From Candidatus Limnocylindrales bacterium (lineage in GTDB: Bacteria > Moduliflexota > Moduliflexia > Moduliflexales > JAUQPW01): a DNA stretch of 64,000 nt. Shown piece after piece: positions 14,633-62,094 of this stretch (position 1 is the first letter of the stretch; the number at the start of each line of letters is the position of its first letter). The notes beneath the pieces are model-generated. The model had not been told where the DNA came from. It was given only the letters and a program-made list of their open reading frames with translations, and ran no database searches. The stretch spans positions 62,001 through 126,000 of the forward strand of contig DATMBG010000037.1 in the NCBI GenBank assembly GCA_035559535.1, given 5' to 3'. The translations under genes were made by a program, and so were the position numbers.

Positions 14633-15586
14633 ATGTTATTTCGCCCAAACAGAAGGCAAAAATATGTGTGGTCCTCCCTCACCGTGATCATCCTTTTTTT
14701 ATCTCTGCTGTTTCTTTCCACGGAACTCTATAAGGAACGGGACTTCAGCCAGATTTTCCTGGATCGGAAAGGAAGTCTCGTCGAGATTGAAGAACGGTCC
14801 CTGGATCCTAAAAAGTATGAAATTCGGCTTCGTAGCTCAAATGGTCTTACCGTGGAGGGATTTATTAAAATTCCGGATTCTTCGACCCTATCTGCACCGG
14901 CGGTTATTGTTTTTAATGGGCTGGAGACCGGAGCCTGGGTGGTGGATCTGATCGGTGGCGTCCAGGAAGTTGAGGAGACGGTGATCATGGCGATGAATTA
15001 TCCTTACAAGGGAGAGGTTTCCCTGGAAGGAGCTCAACTCCTATTGACACTTCTTCAGTTTCGCCAGGCTATTTTTGATACCGTTGTCGGTGGTTTACTT
15101 ATGGTGGATTACCTGACCCAACGTAAAGGGGTAGACCCCGAACGGATTACCATGGTCGGGATCAGTTTTGGAAGTCCTTTTGCCGTGGTAGTGAGTGCCC
15201 TGGATCCTAGAATTCGGGGAGTGGCCATTCATTATGGCGGAGGGGATCTGGAAAAGCTTCTTTTCCATAATATTCAATCGGGAAATTGGATTTCCAGAAA
15301 GTTGCTGAGCTCTCTGGGTGCCCTGATTTTGGCACCCATAGAACCCCTCAAATATATCGACCGCATAGCGCCTCGACCTCTTTTTATGATTAATGGGGAA
15401 CAGGATGAAAGAATCCCCCAGGAGAGTGCCAGGACCTTGTTCCAAAAAGCCCATTTCCCCAAAGAGATGGTTTGGCTGGAGTCCGATCATGTTTATCCTT
15501 CCAAAACAGAGTTGATCCAGGAATTAACCCGCAGAACCGCTCAGTGGATGAAAAAGAACCATCTTCTTAAGGTCTTTCCAAAGTAA
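14633..15586 (+). CDS. Membrane-anchored alpha/beta hydrolase
   Basis: N-terminal TM helix; GISFG nucleophile elbow; GEQDERIP and SDH. Confidence 0.85.
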   Translation: MLFRPNRRQKYVWSSLTVIILFLSLLFLSTELYKERDFSQIFLDRKGSLVEIEERSLDPKKYEIRLRSSNGLTVEGFIKIPDSSTLSAPAVIVFNGLETGAWVVDLIGGVQEVEETVIMAMNYPYKGEVSLEGAQLLLTLLQFRQAIFDTVVGGLLMVDYLTQRKGVDPERITMVGISFGSPFAVVVSALDPRIRGVAIHYGGGDLEKLLFHNIQSGNWISRKLLSSLGALILAPIEPLKYIDRIAPRPLFMINGEQDERIPQESARTLFQKAHFPKEMVWLESDHVYPSKTELIQELTRRTAQWMKKNHLLKVFPK

Positions 15587-15773: not shown

Positions 15774-16547
15774 ATGCCCTATATAAATATTAAAGACAAT
15801 AAGATTCGATATATTGTAGTGGAGAATACCCATAAAGTAGGACATGGCGAAAAGATTTTTTTCCTTCATGGGTTGGGAGGAAATATTTATAACTGGGCGT
15901 ATCAAATTAAATATTTCTCAGAATCTTATCAGGTGATTGCTTTGGAGTTACCCGGTCATGGAAGATCTCCGGGAAAAGGAGCCACCGCCATTTCCGATTA
16001 TACCAACTTGCTACGAGAATTTTTTGAAGTCATGGACCTGGATGAAGTGATTTTAGTGGGTCATTCCATGGGTGGGGCTATTGCTCTAGATTATGCGATT
16101 AAATATCAAGATTCATTAAAAGCCCTTGGACTTGTAGCTACAGGAGCGAAATTTGAGATTTCTACCCAAACCCTCATAAAAATGAAGGACAACATTGAGT
16201 CTATTTTTGGAGCTTTGGATAAAGCCAAGGAAAAAATGAAAGATATCGATGAACGGTTGGTGACCAACGATATCAATGTGATGCTGGGAGATGTGGTGGC
16301 TGCCAGAAAGTTTAACGTAACCTCCCAGTTATCGACCATTCAAATTCCAACTTTAGTCGTTTGTGGTACCGAAGATCCCTTAATTCAAATCTCAATGGCC
16401 GAATATCTCCGGGATCACATTCCGGGTGCTCAACTTGCCCTCATTAAAGGAGCCGGTCATATGGTCATGGTAGAATACCCCCAAGAGTTTAACACCATTT
16501 TGGAGCAGTTTGTTATTAACTTAATGGTAAACTCTTTATGGGACTAA
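15774..16547 (+). CDS. Alpha/beta hydrolase
   Basis: FLHGLGG, GHSMGG, GTEDP and GAGH motifs. Confidence 0.9.
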   Translation: MPYINIKDNKIRYIVVENTHKVGHGEKIFFLHGLGGNIYNWAYQIKYFSESYQVIALELPGHGRSPGKGATAISDYTNLLREFFEVMDLDEVILVGHSMGGAIALDYAIKYQDSLKALGLVATGAKFEISTQTLIKMKDNIESIFGALDKAKEKMKDIDERLVTNDINVMLGDVVAARKFNVTSQLSTIQIPTLVVCGTEDPLIQISMAEYLRDHIPGAQLALIKGAGHMVMVEYPQEFNTILEQFVINLMVNSLWD

Positions 16548-16633: not shown

Positions 16634-18661
16634 ATGGAACCCTCCCTAGATAAGATCCGTAACCTGGGCATTATGGCCCATATCGATGCCGGTAAAACAA
16701 CCGTCACGGAGCGAATCCTGTACTATACCGGGCGCTCTCATAAAATGGGGGAGGTTGACGAGGGATCTGCCACGATGGATTGGATGCCCCAGGAACAGGA
16801 ACGGGGCATTACGATTACCGCGGCAGTTACAACCTGTACCTGGAAAGGTTGTCAGATTAATATCATCGATACGCCGGGTCATGTGGATTTCACCATTGAA
16901 GTCGAACGGGCTTTAAGAGTTCTGGATGGAGCCATAGCCGTTTTCTGTGGGGTAGAGGGTGTAGAGCCTCAATCTGAAAAGGTGTGGCGGCAGGCGGATC
17001 GTTACCATCTTCCCCGGATAGCTTTTGTCAATAAAATGGATCGGGTTGGGGCCGATTTCTTTCGGGCCATCCAGAGCATGGAAGAAAAACTGAAAGCCCG
17101 GGTTGTTCCTATTCAACTCCCCTGGGGAGGAGAAGGTGATTTCCGGGGGGTTATTGACCTTATTGAAATGAAGGGCCTTCTCTGGCAGGATGAATTGGGG
17201 ACGCAAATTGCAGAGGTTGAAATTCCGGTGGATAAGATCCAGGAGGCGAAAAAATACCGAGACAGGCTCATAGAGACCCTGGCCGAGACGGATGATGTTC
17301 TGCTCGATAAGTATCTCAATGAAGTACCTTTGACGGCCGAAGAAATAAAAGCCTCCTTACGGAAAGAGACGTTACAGGGCCGGCTCTTTCCCGTACTTTG
17401 CGGTTCAGCTTTAAAAAATAAAGGCATACAACCTCTGCTCGATGCCGTCATCGACTATCTCCCTTCTCCCATAGAAGTTCCTATAACCCGAGGAATAAAT
17501 CCCCTCACCCAGCAGGAAGAAATTCGTAAGCCGGATTCTACAGAACCTCTGTCGGCTCTTGTATTTAAAGTCATGACCCATCTGGAAGGTCCCACCATCT
17601 TTTATACCCGGATTTATTCCGGTACGTTGTCAGTGGGAGATACCGTCTATAATCCACGTTCGTGTAAGAGGGAAAAAGTTCTGAGGGTCCTTCAACTCCA
17701 TGCCAACAAAATCAACCAAATCGATAAGGCTTATCCGGGGGCCATCATCGGGATTATCGGCTTGAAGTTCACCACGACCGGGGATACCCTCTGTGACGAA
17801 GCCCATCCCATTCTCCTGCAATCCATTGAGTTTCCAGAACCGGTCATCTCCGTTGCTATTGAGCCGAGAACCCAGGCCGATCAGGAAAACCTGGACGAAG
17901 CTCTTCGAAAATTGGCCAACGAGGATCCCACTTTTCAAGTTAAGAAAAATGAGGAGACCGGCCAGACGATTATTTCCGGAATGGGGGAGCTCCATCTGGA
18001 AATTCTCGTGGATCGACTCCTGCGGGAACATAAGGTCAAAGCTCGGGTTGGAAAGCCCCAGGTGGCCTTTAAAGAGACGATTCGGAAGAAAGTAGAAGTG
18101 GAAGGGAAGTTCATCAAACAAACCGGGGGAAGGGACCATTATGGGCATGTGTGGTTGCGGGTAGAACCCAATGAAAGGGGAAAGGGTTTTAAGTTCGAAA
18201 CCGATCTAAAAGAAGGAACCTTACCGCCGATATATATTGCTGCAGTGGAAGCAGGGATTCGGGATACATTGGGAAGCGGGGTATTGGCCGGATACCCCAT
18301 AGTGGATGTCAAAGTCACCCTCTTCGGAGGTTCTTACCATGAAGAACATTCTTCGGAACTGGCTTTTAAGATCGCGGCTGCAACGGCCTTCAATGATGCC
18401 TGTCGAAAAGCAGATCCGGTGCTTCTAGAACCGATTATGCGGGTCGAGGTTAACACCCCCAAGGCCTATACCGGTGAGGTCATAGAAGATCTAAATACCC
18501 GTAAAGGAAAAATTCAAGGATTGGAAACCCGAGAAACTACGGAAATTATTAAGGCTCTGGTCCCTTTGTCGCAAATGTTCGGCTATACCACCAGTCTCAG
18601 ATCTCTGACTCAAGGCCGGGCAACCTTCTCTATGGAACTGTCTCACTATGACGAAGTCTAA
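16634..18661 (+). CDS. fusA: Elongation factor G, stand-alone paralogue outside the str operon
   Basis: [35 protein letters not shown] and LRSLTQGRA motifs; no rpsL, rpsG or tuf neighbours. Confidence 0.95.
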
Positions 18662-20333
18662 GCAAGAGCAAGGAAAAGGAAAAAGGGAAATGATGGACAA
18701 AAATCAGCGTATAGAGAAGTGTGGACCTGTTGCCACTTTCTGTATGTTTGTCTGTGGCCTCTTCCTGGGTCTTGTGGGAGTTCTATCCTCTCACCTGGCC
18801 ATCAGTTTCTATAGGTATCATTTTGTCCTCTTATTTCCTGTCTGGATGGGAATACTCCTGGGAATGGGAGTTTCAATGGGGGCGCGGATAGGAAGATGTA
18901 CCCGACAGTTGTCTGGATTCTTGATGGTTACGCTGCTGAGTATCTTTTGCTACGCCCTGCTTTTAATCCTCAATAACTTTACCTCCCTGACAGAGCCGGG
19001 TACGGCTGTAAAAGAGTATTATTACTTGAGAAGAGATTTTGTAGAACCCCTTCAAAAAACCGTTTCCCAATACGGACTGGATCTCAAGACCTGGGATACC
19101 CTCAAAGAAGTTTGGTTCCAATGGGCTTCTTTATTACCGGCTTATGATGAAAAAGCCATGGTTTCTAACCATGAATTTTCAGTTTTTTTAGAGTATCCTC
19201 CCCTTACCAGGTGGCAGGCACAAAGGAAGATCTTAGAATTCGAGAAGGTCCAAAACTGGATGGTATGGGGTGTGGAACTTCTCGTTTTGATCCTGGTTGC
19301 CTGGGAAAAAACTCATAAAACGATCCAATACAACTACGCCAGGGCTTATTCCAGAAAAATGCTCCAATCCGAAGTGAAGAGCTCTCCGACCGAGACAAAA
19401 ACCCTGGAAAATCGGCTGGCTAACTTGAATCTGGAGCCTGGACGGGTTTCCGAAGCATCTCAGCAGGCCAAAAAGCCTGAGGCCCCTGTTAAAACGCCGG
19501 GTACAGAAACTCCCACGGTTACCATCCCCCCTATGCCGGTGGATCACACCGAAATCCCTGCAACCATGATCCTTGATCGGCAGGTTGATACCACCAAAAC
19601 CCTCACACTGCCTCAGCCAGATATGCCGGGTACTGGTCCAACAACCTCGACTTCTGCAACGCTTAACCGGCCAACTGATACCCCAAAAACCCAGGAGTCC
19701 CCGGAGATAAAGGCCCAACAACCACCGCCAGGCCCCGGGTATGCACTTTTACTTCGAGGATATGATCCAGCACGGACAGAAGCGCTGGTGGATTTCATGA
19801 CCAAATCCCTGAACATGTCCATGGATAAAGCTAAAGTCTTACTTAAAACCCCCTCTCTGTTAAAAGCTCCGGTAACGGACCTGGAAGCTCAGACTCTCGT
19901 AAAAGCGTTTAATCAATTGGGTGCTCGCGTTCAAGTTATCACCCTGGAGCAACTCCGAGCTATAGCCGAAAAACAAAGGAGGCAGAAGAGTAAAGAACCC
20001 TCGAGAACCCTATCGGAATCTGTTACCCAGGGTTTGGAAGTTCCAACCCTCATGACCCCTCCGTTCTCCAGGGATAATCCGAGATATGGGGTTTTATTAC
20101 AAAAATTTGATAAGACCTATGAAGAAGAAGTTCTTCACCTCCTTGCTTCGCTAACCGGATTAACCATAGAACGTCTGAAATCGGCTCTCAGAACTCCTGC
20201 CCTTGTAGTAAAAAATGTGACTCAAGAAGAAGCAGACCGGATCGGTCAACAATTTAAGGGTATCGGTGCAGAAGTAACTATTTTAACCATGCAGGAGGTA
20301 GAAAAATTGTTTGCCCCCAAACGATCTGCGTGA
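18648..20333 (+). CDS. Membrane protein with N-terminal TM region, Pro/Thr-rich linker and two C-terminal ribosomal-protein bL12-CTD/ClpS-like domains
   Basis: About four TM segments; two repeats of Y-x-[LV]-L-L...L.[LM]....[AL]K..L.TP.[LV]....VT..EA......F..[LI]GA.V resembling the L7/L12 C-terminal domain. Alternative start at 18690. Confidence 0.7.
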
Positions 20334-20388
20334 AACGTAGTCTTATAGAAAGACCTTACGTTTTACGCCCTATGGTTTACAGACAGGT

Positions 20389-20595
20389 ATGATTGAAAAA
20401 ACCACTATTTTCATCGAAGGAATGAGCTGCAATCATTGTAAAATGACCCTGGAAAAAGGTATCGGTGGCTTGAAAGGAGTCTCCTCGGTCAAAGTGGATC
20501 TCGATCAGAATCAGGCAGAAGTTCAATTTGATCCCGACGAGATATCCTTGACAGATATTAAAAAGAAAATTGTTGATTTAGGCTATAAGGTTTAG
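20389..20595 (+). CDS. copZ: Copper chaperone (HMA domain)
   Basis: GMSCNHC motif, 68 aa. Confidence 0.92.
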   Translation: MIEKTTIFIEGMSCNHCKMTLEKGIGGLKGVSSVKVDLDQNQAEVQFDPDEISLTDIKKKIVDLGYKV

Positions 20596-20605
20596 AACAG
20601 GAGGA

Positions 20606-21691
20606 ATGATTATGCCTTGGAAAGACAGAAATCCCAGACGAGGTCCTGGAGGGGATTTTGATGAAGAACCCGAGTTTAAATTACCCGGTTTAGATTTACC
20701 CCGGGTGTTCTGGCCGAAAACTTTTAATCTGGTAATTATTTTGGTGGTGGTTCTGGGACTTTTTATAGCCGCCGGAGTCTATAAGGTGAACCTGGGTGAG
20801 GTGGGAGTGGTCAAGCGTTTCGGTAAACTCAACCGGATCGTCAGTCCGGGCTTACATTATCGAATTCCCTTCATCGAAGAGGTAGCAACTCCCAAAGTAG
20901 AAGAAGCTAAACGCGAAGAAATCGGCTTTAGGACCATAGATCCGGGCCCCCCGGCCAAATATCAGGATGTACCTAAAGAATCCCTCATGCTCACCGGAGA
21001 TGAAAACATTATCGATATCGATGTCATTGTACAATATCGAATTAAGGATGCAGCCGCCTATTTGTTTAACGTGAGAGATCAACAAAAAACCGTGCGAGAT
21101 GCTGCCGAAGCGGCTATCCGAGAGATTATAGGGAATCGAACCATTGATGAAGCTTTAACGACCGGGAAAACAGATATTCAGAACAGCACCCGGGAACTCC
21201 TTCAACAGATTTTAGATAAATACCAAAGTGGAATCGTCATCGAAATGGTTCAGCTCCAAGATGTTCATCCCCCCCAGCAGGTTTTTGCTGCATTTCGAGA
21301 TGTAGCCAGTGCAAGGGAAGATCGCAATCGACTCATCAACGAAGCCCAAGGGTATCGAAACGACATTATTCCTAAAGCAGAAGGGGCGGCGGCTGAAATT
21401 ATTCAGCAGGCGGAAGCTTACAAGCAAGAGAGAATCAACCGGGCCCTTGGGGATGTTACCCGATTCCGCCAGATTCTGACGGAATACCAAAAGGCTAAGG
21501 AGATCACCAAGCAGCGGTTGTATCTCGAAACCATGGATGAGATCTTACCGGGTATCGATAAGTACATTATCGATGAAACTTCCCAAAAAGGATTGTTACC
21601 CATACTCCAGCTCAATAAAGAAGAATACCGTAAAGACGAGAATCATCCGGTTGGAAATGCATCCGAGGAAAGAAAAGGAGGAAATCCATGA
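20606..21691 (+). CDS. hflK: FtsH protease modulator HflK
   Basis: SPFH domain; MLTGDENI, AFRDVASAREDR and RLYLETM motifs. Confidence 0.95.
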   Translation: MIMPWKDRNPRRGPGGDFDEEPEFKLPGLDLPRVFWPKTFNLVIILVVVLGLFIAAGVYKVNLGEVGVVKRFGKLNRIVSPGLHYRIPFIEEVATPKVEEAKREEIGFRTIDPGPPAKYQDVPKESLMLTGDENIIDIDVIVQYRIKDAAAYLFNVRDQQKTVRDAAEAAIREIIGNRTIDEALTTGKTDIQNSTRELLQQILDKYQSGIVIEMVQLQDVHPPQQVFAAFRDVASAREDRNRLINEAQGYRNDIIPKAEGAAAEIIQQAEAYKQERINRALGDVTRFRQILTEYQKAKEITKQRLYLETMDEILPGIDKYIIDETSQKGLLPILQLNKEEYRKDENHPVGNASEERKGGNP

Positions 21692-22596
21692 AGAGTTCAC
21701 TGAGTACCATTGCTCTCCTTGTTGTCGTCTTGATTCTGATAAACTCCCTTTTTTACACTGTGGATGAAACCGAGCAAGCCGTGGTCACCCAATTCGGTAA
21801 ATTTGTAAAAACAGTGACAGAGCCCGGTTTACATGTCAAAGTTCCTTTTCTTCAACAGGTTACCCTCTTCGAAGATAGGGTTCTGGGATATGATGCCGCT
21901 CCTAAAGAAGTGATCAGCCGGGATAAAAAGGCGATTGTCATGGACAATTATGCCAAATGGCGCATTGAGGATGCTCAAAAGTTCTATGAAAGTGTCCGGG
22001 ATGAGGCCCGTGCTCAATTCCGAATCGATGATATTATCTACTCCGAGCTGAGAGCGGAACTCGGTATGCACGATTTTGCCTCTATCATTGGAAAAGAGCG
22101 GAGCCAGATTATGGATAAGGTAACCGAGAACAGTAATCGACAGGCATCTAAATACGGAATTGAAATCGTGGATGTTCGGATTAAGCGAGCCGACTTACCC
22201 CCCGAAAACGAAAAATCTATCTTCGGGCGCATGGAAACAGAACGCCAACGAGAGGCCAAGCAATACCGCTCAGAAGGGGCAAGGGAAGCAACTAAAATAC
22301 GAGCTGAAGCCGATAAAGAAAGAGCCATTATTCTGGCAGAAGCTTATAAAAAAGAACAACAAATCAAAGGAGAGGGAGATGCTGAGGCTATTAAAATCTA
22401 CGCCGAAGCTTATCAGCAGGATCCAGAGTTTTACGGCTTTATCAGGACTTTAGAAGCCTACAAACGGTCCCTCAAAGAGAGATCAACCCTTGTGCTATCC
22501 CCGAATTCTGAGTTTCTAAAATATTTAACCCGGTTTAACCTGGATTCAGACTCCCGGCACAATCAGACGAACAATAAGGAAGACCATGGAAAATAA
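21688..22596 (+). CDS. hflC: FtsH protease modulator HflC
   Basis: DVRIKRADLP, RMETERQREA and FYGFIRTLEAY motifs; overlaps the hflK stop. Confidence 0.95.
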   Translation: MKSSLSTIALLVVVLILINSLFYTVDETEQAVVTQFGKFVKTVTEPGLHVKVPFLQQVTLFEDRVLGYDAAPKEVISRDKKAIVMDNYAKWRIEDAQKFYESVRDEARAQFRIDDIIYSELRAELGMHDFASIIGKERSQIMDKVTENSNRQASKYGIEIVDVRIKRADLPPENEKSIFGRMETERQREAKQYRSEGAREATKIRAEADKERAIILAEAYKKEQQIKGEGDAEAIKIYAEAYQQDPEFYGFIRTLEAYKRSLKERSTLVLSPNSEFLKYLTRFNLDSDSRHNQTNNKEDHGK

Positions 22597-61947: not shown

Positions 61948-62094
61948 ATGTTGTGGACGATTCTGTTGATTCTTTTGGTGCTTTGGGCTCTTGGTTTTGG
62001 CTTTAGTATAGGAGGTAATCTCATTCACTTGTTATTGATTGTTGGGCTTGTTGTGCTGATTGCCCAGTTGATACGGGGACGGAGAGGAGTCTGA
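61948..62094 (+). CDS. lmo0937-family small membrane protein (48 aa)
   Basis: MLWTILLILLVLWALGFGFSIGGNLIHLLLIVGLVVLIAQLIRGRRGV with AAGGAG RBS; not in the ORF track. Confidence 0.85.
   Translation: MLWTILLILLVLWALGFGFSIGGNLIHLLLIVGLVVLIAQLIRGRRGV

Follow-up and report, generated by a model that had tools for sequence, protein, structure and literature searches.

A paralogue of elongation factor G encoded next to a membrane protein with two bL12-like domains in the phylum Moduliflexota

Introduction

The C-terminal domain (CTD) of ribosomal protein bL12 (L7/L12) is a contact site shared by several translational GTPases (PMC10931766; articles given here by PMC number are cited for passages of their text) and meets elongation factor G (EF-G) at the G' subdomain of the factor (PMC5207388, PMC10931766, PMC5887453). 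Residues V66–V68, K70, L80 and E82 of the domain are listed as touching G' (PMC5887453, citing Helgstrand 2007 and Nechifor 2007), and one copy of the domain has been seen in contact with the N-terminal domain of uL11 (PMC5207388). Here we describe a locus which raises the question whether stalk-type domains also work away from the ribosome. It is located on contig DATMBG010000037.1 of the Candidatus Limnocylindrales bacterium assembly GCA_035559535.1 (phylum Moduliflexota, order Moduliflexales), within a stretch of 64,000 nucleotides (contig positions 62,001 to 126,000, forward strand) that was analysed as a whole and is called the window below. A gene for an EF-G paralogue is followed there by a gene for a membrane protein whose C-terminal tail is modelled as two domains with the bL12 CTD fold.

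EF-G paralogues are common, few of them have a known role and we found none in the literature that has a fixed protein partner. In Pseudomonas aeruginosa the two EFG-I-type paralogues EF-G1A and EF-G1B divide translocation and recycling between them (PMC3832671). The paralogue in the window is likewise a second EFG-I-like gene that lies outside the str region and carries its own sequence signature; it differs in having a fixed membrane-protein neighbour, which we have not found described for any EF-G paralogue. A location at the membrane is described for EF4/LepA, an EF-G-family GTPase that is stored there and released to ribosomes under stress (PMC4324249). The paralogue described here would share such a location if our proposal holds; EF4/LepA differs in belonging to another subfamily, and the available passages of PMC4324249 describe no stalk-like protein anchor for it.

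Specialised EF-G paralogues and non-ribosomal proteins with L12 domains are each of a known kind, and new in this locus are their fixed pairing and the putative membrane tether. A search that covered largely the openly accessible literature found no account of an L12-CTD protein, whether membrane-anchored or otherwise non-ribosomal, that is linked with EF-G, and the portion consulted of a 2024 review on extraribosomal roles of ribosomal proteins contains no such protein either. In the main text of the KSB3 genome paper (PMC4312070) the terms 'elongation factor', 'L12' and 'HflK' do not occur. Judged from its sequence, the locus points to a connection of translation with the membrane that has not been described so far.

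Results and Discussion

In the window the gene for the EF-G paralogue (675 amino acids, positions 16634–18661) stands between the genes for an alpha/beta-fold hydrolase (257 amino acids, 15774–16547) and for the membrane protein (547 amino acids, 18690–20333), all three on the forward strand. For the membrane protein the longest open reading frame (ORF) begins at 18648 and would encode 561 amino acids. The likely start is ATG 18690, which is preceded by a purine-rich run resembling a Shine–Dalgarno sequence; the database copy P0001 (547 amino acids) starts at this codon, as do most homologues. With this start the genes for EF-G and the membrane protein are 28 nt apart and do not overlap. A preliminary description of the stretch had fusA overlapping or closely preceding the membrane-protein ORF, and of these two options the second is the more likely.

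We searched 41 genomes for the membrane protein, namely the source genome (G000, with the contigs C6, C22, C33 and C54 referred to below), eight others of its order and 32 from other phyla. It is present in nine of them, which are all nine species genomes of the phylum in the collection used, and absent from the 32 genomes of other phyla. A comparison of 12 kb around each of the eight other copies revealed the same order of hydrolase, EF-G paralogue and membrane protein, on one strand and tightly spaced, in all eight. From a metagenome scan eight loci were obtained; five of the contigs are too short upstream, and the three that include upstream DNA (L098, L099 and L100) all carry the three-gene block, although L099 is apparently the same contig as that of G002 and hence not independent. 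Linkage of the membrane protein to a fusA paralogue, which had been noted for a single genome, extends to all eight other genomes of the phylum and to every informative contig. Identity to the copies in the window amounts to 57–60% for the hydrolase, 61–66% for the EF-G paralogue and 27–39% for the membrane protein, and in the same-genus genome G001 to 98%, 97% and 85%, respectively.

The block has stayed intact while its flanks were rearranged. Apart from the window, copZ and hflK/hflC come after the membrane-protein gene in just two sequences, G001 and contig L098; the EF-G encoded on L098 shares 84% identity with that in the window. The seven genomes of the other family (loci L030–L036) instead show an HHH_3 (ComEA-like) gene, which starts within a few bases of the membrane-protein gene or overlaps it, and then a Competence/DUF4131 (ComEC-like) gene; the ORFs are seen in all seven, and the Pfam assignments refer to the two that were tested. 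The two genes form a genuine pair, which is old in this phylum and closely conserved. The family of the membrane protein is rare, since its full profile gave 44 matches at E ≤ 1e-3 in a set of 1.84 billion representative proteins, and members that have a name in their source are called 'hypothetical protein'. A further profile search, aimed at longer proteins, gave 62 of them, of which almost all have 520–640 amino acids and are either unnamed or annotated as 'hypothetical'.

The C-terminal repeats of the membrane protein were analysed in an AlphaFold2 model of the whole protein, which was built from a 15-row alignment and has a mean predicted local distance difference test (pLDDT) value of 58. 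In it residues 351–434 and 466–541 form two compact domains (pLDDT 78–89) with the order b-a-a-b-a-b and one extra helix, encoded at 19740–19991 (repeat 1) and 20085–20312 (repeat 2). Their strands b1–b3 fall at nt 19740–19943 and 20085–20288, matching the two repeats that had been picked out by eye at about 19740–19940 and 20085–20285. Modelled alone from an 18-row alignment, repeat 1 reached a pLDDT of 95.6, and its ten best Foldseek matches in the PDB are all L7/L12 structures or ribosome entries, for example 6gb2_BL (E 9.6e-5) and 1ctf (TM-score 0.81/0.89, root-mean-square deviation (rmsd) 1.3 Å, 26% identity). With VIA-align repeat 1 gave Z 12.3 to 8yeq (rmsd 1.7 Å over 70 residues) and repeat 2 gave Z 10.5 to 1ctf (rmsd 1.4 Å over 67 residues). 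Chains of ClpS, the N-degron adaptor of ClpAP with a related alpha/beta fold, are the second-best matches and rank after bL12 both in Foldseek (TM-score 0.62–0.72, rmsd 2.1–3.2 Å) and in VIA-align (Z 8.3–10.2); the search with the whole-protein model led to the same ranking.

The resemblance to bL12 is weaker in sequence than in structure. Repeat 2 matches the Pfam family Ribosomal_L12 (PF00542) with E 1.7e-7 and 31.9 bits against a gathering score of 25.9, under which repeat 1 stays with 15.4 bits. A profile of the 18 repeat units from the nine genomes found the bL12 chain 7pao_W as best PDB sequence (E 1.3e-4), and of the 13 PDB sequences at E ≤ 1 eleven are L7/L12 and two symplekin. None of the 18 units matches the Pfam ClpS family at E ≤ 1, and no Pfam family besides PF00542 was found in the membrane protein. 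From the models we regard the bL12 CTD fold of the repeats, which the preliminary description had read from their sequence pattern, as secure; it is nearer to bL12 than to ClpS.

The likeness to ribosomal bL12 includes the fold and the order of secondary-structure elements (repeat 1 rmsd 1.3–1.8 Å and TM-score about 0.8; Z 10.5–12.3) as well as the presence of several copies on flexible tethers. Unlike bL12, the membrane protein is predicted to be anchored in the membrane, its tether has about 140 residues and the N-terminal dimerisation and uL10-binding domain is missing. A true second bL12 was rejected on the latter ground and because the protein reaches 27.1 bits on TIGR00855, whose cut-off is 84.4; the true rplL is located elsewhere in the genome.

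The N-terminal part of the protein consists of a four-helix transmembrane (TM) module (18726–19310). Hydropathy reveals segments at residues 27–47, 57–78, 89–109 and 203–221 of the 561-residue ORF, with a loop of 93 residues between TM3 and TM4 that is predicted to lie outside, and the model places helices at 13–40, 48–67, 74–94 and 184–230 (pLDDT 50–74), so that the expected number of about four TM helices was found by both. For the orientation we counted Lys and Arg over 15 homologues, taking as inside the N-terminus, the TM2–TM3 loop and 25 residues past TM4, and as outside the TM1–TM2 loop and the flanks of the large loop. The sums are 198 inside and 65 outside, with an excess inside in each of the 15. 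From these counts and by the positive-inside rule the linker and the repeats are predicted to be cytoplasmic, in all 15 homologues and as anticipated earlier, and probably are so; a caveat on this topology is that TM4 is moderately hydrophobic and carries an invariant Glu.

The tether between TM module and repeats (about 140 amino acids, 19311–19739) appears disordered, with a pLDDT of about 30 over model residues 239–347. It measures 113–233 residues in the 15 homologues and varies in composition. The long Pro/Thr-rich linker seen at the outset is found in the source protein, but it is limited to the source lineage and is no trait of the family, as tethers elsewhere are rich in Lys and Glu.

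The TM module matches no Pfam family, and an Atlas search with it gave unnamed clusters only (best score 0.91), from which no function was derived. The four-TM module, with its loop G-x-K/R-x-G-K/R-C-R, also stands alone in proteins of 260–310 amino acids (P0027, P0036, P0038 and similar ones), which end in a different C-terminal part containing CxxC pairs, and it can thus be regarded as an independent module. Two cysteines are invariant in all 15 homologues, Cys25 just before TM1 (18720–18722) and Cys84 in the GxRxGRC loop between TM2 and TM3 (18897–18899; both in the numbering of the 561-residue ORF). Both lie on the predicted cytoplasmic face of the module, and a His after TM1 is also invariant, as is the Glu in TM4. 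These residues could form a metal or redox site. A copZ gene stands 3' of the membrane-protein gene in one lineage only.

The EF-G paralogue contains all five EF-G domains of Pfam (GTP_EFTU, D2, EFG_III, EFG_IV and EFG_C) and scores 990.4–991.5 bits on TIGR00484 (cut-off 659.4). Above this cut-off the source genome has three EF-G-type genes, and every one of the nine Moduliflexota genomes likewise has three. The copy on C54 (1170.8 bits) is the str-region EF-G, 10 kb from rplJ-rplL with the true rplL, and shares 61% identity with the paralogue, as opposed to 84% between the two paralogues of P. aeruginosa. The third copy (C22:75424–77478; 815.1 bits, P-loop GHGHSGKT) is 44% identical to the EF-G in the window, with one such copy in each of the nine genomes, and it appears to be of the EFG II / EF-G2 type. 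Margus et al. in 2011 reportedly distinguished the subfamilies EFG I, spdEFG and EFG II. For the paralogue itself an EF-G2 / EFG II identity was rejected (NF009377 462.7 bits vs 890; NF058620 448 vs 1000), as was a tetracycline ribosomal protection protein (NF012153, tet_protect, 436.5 bits vs a cut-off of 775).

In order to place the paralogue we reconstructed a quick maximum likelihood tree (LG+G4) of 31 rows, comprising the nine paralogues, the nine housekeeping copies, twelve EF-Gs from other phyla and, as root, the EF-G2-like copy of the source genome. All nine paralogues group in a single clade with a Shimodaira–Hasegawa-like approximate likelihood ratio (SH-aLRT) support of 100 and a stem of 0.35, and inside it the branching mirrors that of the housekeeping copies with longer branches. 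The position of the clade relative to the housekeeping copies is not settled by this tree, which leaves duplication and transfer undistinguished. In the databases the nearest proteins are two at 83–84% identity, followed by about thirty clusters at 62–66% (683–686 amino acids), with EF-G of KSB3 or Moduliflexus as the name wherever the source gives one, and then by housekeeping EF-Gs of other phyla at about 60–64%. Unlike the P. aeruginosa pair, the paralogue thus belongs to a clade of its own that is so far known only from this phylum.

An alignment of 29 rows, with the nine paralogues and 20 other EF-Gs, was used to compare motifs. The G motifs including NKMD/NKLD are intact in all nine paralogues. 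Five changes are present in nine of nine paralogues and in none of the 20 others: GKTTVTE in place of GKTTTTE at the P-loop flank, QSEKVW in place of Q(S/T)ETVW, (T/M)Hx(E/D)GPxI(F/Y)YTR in place of DP(Y/F)VGxL(T)(F/Y)xR in domain II and, in the two tip loops of domain IV, GGR(D/E)H in place of GG(R/K/H)GQ (first loop) and the replacement of VD in H-x-VDSS (second loop). The clear changes fall in the P-loop flank and in domains II, III and IV, and the paralogues are also without the C-terminal tail of the C54 copy. Domain II of EF-G touches 16S h5/h15, and the tip of domain IV touches the codon–anticodon helix (PMC5207388). From these contacts a specialised role on the ribosome can be inferred; the GTPase core is kept, but the two altered regions make it more likely that the paralogue is a specialist in ribosome splitting, recycling or rescue rather than a second translocase.

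How might the two proteins act together? We tentatively favour, at somewhat less than an even chance, that the membrane protein is a tether which holds its dedicated EF-G paralogue at the membrane. Hydrolase, paralogue and membrane protein would form a dedicated set, in which the four helices seat the membrane protein in the inner membrane and the two domains with bL12 CTD fold extend into the cytoplasm on a tether of 110–230 residues. The tethered domains would bind the EF-G paralogue and thereby retain it at the membrane, and this pool might serve either as a store that is set free when the TM module senses a signal or as a local supply for membrane ribosomes. The EF-G so held would have kept its GTPase core and would act with an altered domain II motif, in a region contacting the 30S subunit, and an altered domain IV tip. 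This proposal draws on gene order, fold, topology and clade structure as observed or predicted above; we infer the binding and every step that follows it. The only well-described role of the fold is contact with translational GTPases, and binding of the tail to the neighbouring EF-G is thus the most economical reading. A complex prediction for the paralogue with tail residues 345–547 scored 0.01 against a mark of 0.32, was run without controls and weighs neither way. If the binding is true, the locus would represent a new kind of system, in which a translation factor is positioned or withheld within the cell in a novel manner, and it would help to approach the numerous non-ribosomal proteins with L12 domains that stand unexplained in databases. 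If the repeats do not bind EF-G, the fold would have a second use.

Several observations weigh against such a tether, and most of them concern the surface of the repeats. The stretch KIQVIK..R..T.LGLKEAK is invariant among the phylum's nine true bL12 proteins, and the factor-contact residues of bL12 are not kept in the repeats: K70 is replaced by D, H, W, Q or E, R73 by T, A, S or Q, G79 by S, T or P and E82 by K, R or Q. Moreover, 16 of the 18 repeat units are basic (net charge +2 to +5, isoelectric point (pI) 9.5–10.1), the two others being repeat 2 of the source genus with net charge 0, as compared with net charge 0 and pI 6.6 for the genome's own bL12 CTD. The kinship in sequence is distant as well, with a PF00542 match at E ≤ 1 in six of the 18 units and an hhalign probability of 41% (E 2.7e-4, 52 columns) between the repeats and the true bL12 of the phylum. 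On the side of the factor, no signature peculiar to the paralogues was seen for G' in the 29-row alignment. Furthermore, no translational GTPase match lies near the other L12-like proteins of the source genome, the same two repeats occur in a soluble protein (P0016, see below), and all nine genomes are kin in one order, so that the conserved gene order counts as few independent observations.

Other features of the same surfaces are nearer to what is known from bL12. Of the aligned positions just the Lys matching K84 has been largely retained in repeat 1. The conserved patch of the repeats comprises helix 5 and the following loop, with LLK(T/V)PSL in repeat 1 and L(K/R)(T/P)PAL and IxQQF in repeat 2; it coincides with part of the factor-binding face of bL12 and is basic. 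On the G' helix an acidic residue is kept in all nine paralogues at the position that we take to correspond to E. coli E224. The patch and this residue speak for the tether, as do the precedents of EF4/LepA and of the two P. aeruginosa paralogues. The preliminary description had suggested a membrane-tethered mimic of the ribosomal stalk; a faithful mimic is not supported, in view of the replaced contact positions and the basic charge. Fold, predicted cytoplasmic side and linkage to fusA have come out in favour of the earlier interpretation, which is thus supported in part; the faithful mimicry and the tie to HflKC (see below) are not supported.

The loss of the contact residues and the basic charge would also fit a different explanation, in which the L12-like domain serves membrane proteins of this phylum as a general module for contacts in the cytoplasm, with a partner other than EF-G (a peptide or a protease adaptor as for ClpS, another protein, acidic lipid or RNA) and the paralogue is co-expressed and active in the same pathway without touching the repeats. 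This is possible but on balance doubtful. In its favour each of the nine genomes has three to five PF00542 matches at E ≤ 0.01. At E ≤ 0.001 there are three or four in each of these related and hence non-independent genomes, and multiple matches are scarce in 112 genomes of other lineages, of which 108 have a match, six have two and two have three. The preliminary description had cautioned that L12-like folds occur on unrelated membrane proteins, and indeed several such proteins are encoded in the same genomes.

These L12-like proteins belong to different families. In two of them the L12-like domain is N-terminal and followed either by an acidic linker, a TM helix, a coiled coil and an outside domain or by a TM helix and an FGE-sulfatase domain (Pfam E 3.8e-46 in L063). 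In two others it is C-terminal, preceded by SH3_3, a coiled coil, a TM helix and a linker (own genome, C33:80981–81175; L011 319–1716) or by a coiled coil, a TM helix and a very acidic linker. A soluble L12-like protein of 278 amino acids is also present in the own genome (C6:136926–137117; L010 1111–1947). In the single-domain membrane families, both of the own genome and of the relatives (L054–L070), the domain lies on the predicted cytoplasmic side. As no translational GTPase match lies near those of the source genome, the domain may have a more general partner.

A further point for a general module is P0016, a soluble metagenome protein of 720 amino acids that joins the same two repeats at its C-terminus to HEAT repeats and to two ClpX-type C4 zinc fingers (PF06689, E 1.8e-18). 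It is an exception, since the repeat subtype is otherwise almost confined to the family of the membrane protein in the window, but its architecture hints that the repeat pair is a portable module which may link to AAA+ protease adaptors, and ClpS is the next-best match by fold. Against such a partner, bL12 beats ClpS in every structure search and the Pfam ClpS family finds none of the 18 units. A general module also leaves unexplained why the membrane protein in the window, the only one with two repeats among the L12-like membrane proteins of the phylum, adjoins a dedicated EF-G throughout the phylum.

More far-reaching is a phylum-wide scheme, which we consider unlikely. The bL12 CTD fold would have been recruited as a general cytoplasmic output module of membrane proteins, whose tethered L12-like heads capture or release translational GTPases and let envelope signals act directly on translation. 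The outside domains (SH3, FGE-sulfatase-like and the four-TM module) would sense envelope conditions, and the tandem-repeat protein with its dedicated EF-G and the esterase would be the most elaborate case, perhaps a device for the rescue or recycling of membrane ribosomes.

It appears quite improbable that the tail acts as a broad membrane 'stalk' which binds several translational GTPases (EF-Tu, IF2, RF3, LepA and both EF-Gs) or docks on the ribosome near uL11, so that translation factors or ribosomes are held at the membrane generally and the paralogue is one client among them. Two copies on a long tether do recall the multi-copy ribosomal stalk, the single-domain membrane proteins fit the same logic, and the bL12 CTD is shared by several factors (PMC10931766), with one copy touching the N-terminal domain of uL11 (PMC5207388). 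However, the lost contact residues argue against recognition of factors that have co-evolved with true bL12, and that the protein is so strictly paired with a single paralogue points to a specific client.

The adjacency might also be without functional meaning and the gene order simply inherited within a small clade, as the non-independence of the nine genomes allows. We regard this as very unlikely, because the block stayed together while its flanks were rearranged, the gap is short (28 nt in the window and comparably narrow in the other genomes) and the only well-described role of the fold is contact with factors such as EF-G.

Downstream of the membrane-protein gene, and on the same strand, follow genes for a copZ-type metallochaperone (68 amino acids, 20389–20595; HMA 67.6 bits, TIGR00003 74.2 vs 62), for hflK (20606–21691; TIGR01933 302.3 bits vs 159.4) and for hflC (21688–22596; TIGR01932 265.6 bits vs 134.4), with the equivalog scores of HflK and HflC both above cut-off. 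The ORF map and the family scans place fusA, the membrane-protein ORF, copZ, hflK and hflC where they had first been read. The gaps are 55 nt ahead of copZ and 10 nt ahead of hflK, and hflK and hflC overlap by 4 nt, which bears out the spacing of 55 nt or less given earlier. That the pair couples ribosome recycling or rescue to membrane-protein quality control by HflKC and FtsH, as first proposed, has only a slim chance of being right. In its favour the genes from the hydrolase to hflC lie on one strand with gaps of at most 86 nt, and their order recurs in G001 and L098. Against it, hflKC and copZ are not adjacent in the seven genomes of the other family, where the comEA/comEC-like genes stand instead, and copZ, hflK and hflC are therefore probably outside the conserved core.

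No same-strand terminator-like site lies between the genes from the hydrolase to hflC, and one lies inside the membrane-protein gene. Five promoter-like sites were counted where 11.1 were expected, and 13 terminator-like sites where 9.7 were expected, and an operon is not defined by these numbers. An Rfam scan of the window gave no RNA family above threshold, and among the sequencing runs listed as containing the stretch none is recorded as RNA.

Just 5' of the three-gene block another protein predicted to be a hydrolase is encoded at 14633–15586; it is DLH / Peptidase_S9-like and its N-terminus is hydrophobic. Apart from the window, the gene is conserved in just the same-genus genome (91%) and contig L098 (69%) and not in the other family. 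The alpha/beta-fold hydrolase at 15774–16547, the first gene of the block, reaches no NCBIfam model above cut-off; it matches Abhydrolase_1 with E 5e-30, and the nucleophile-elbow motif GHSMGG can be read from its sequence.

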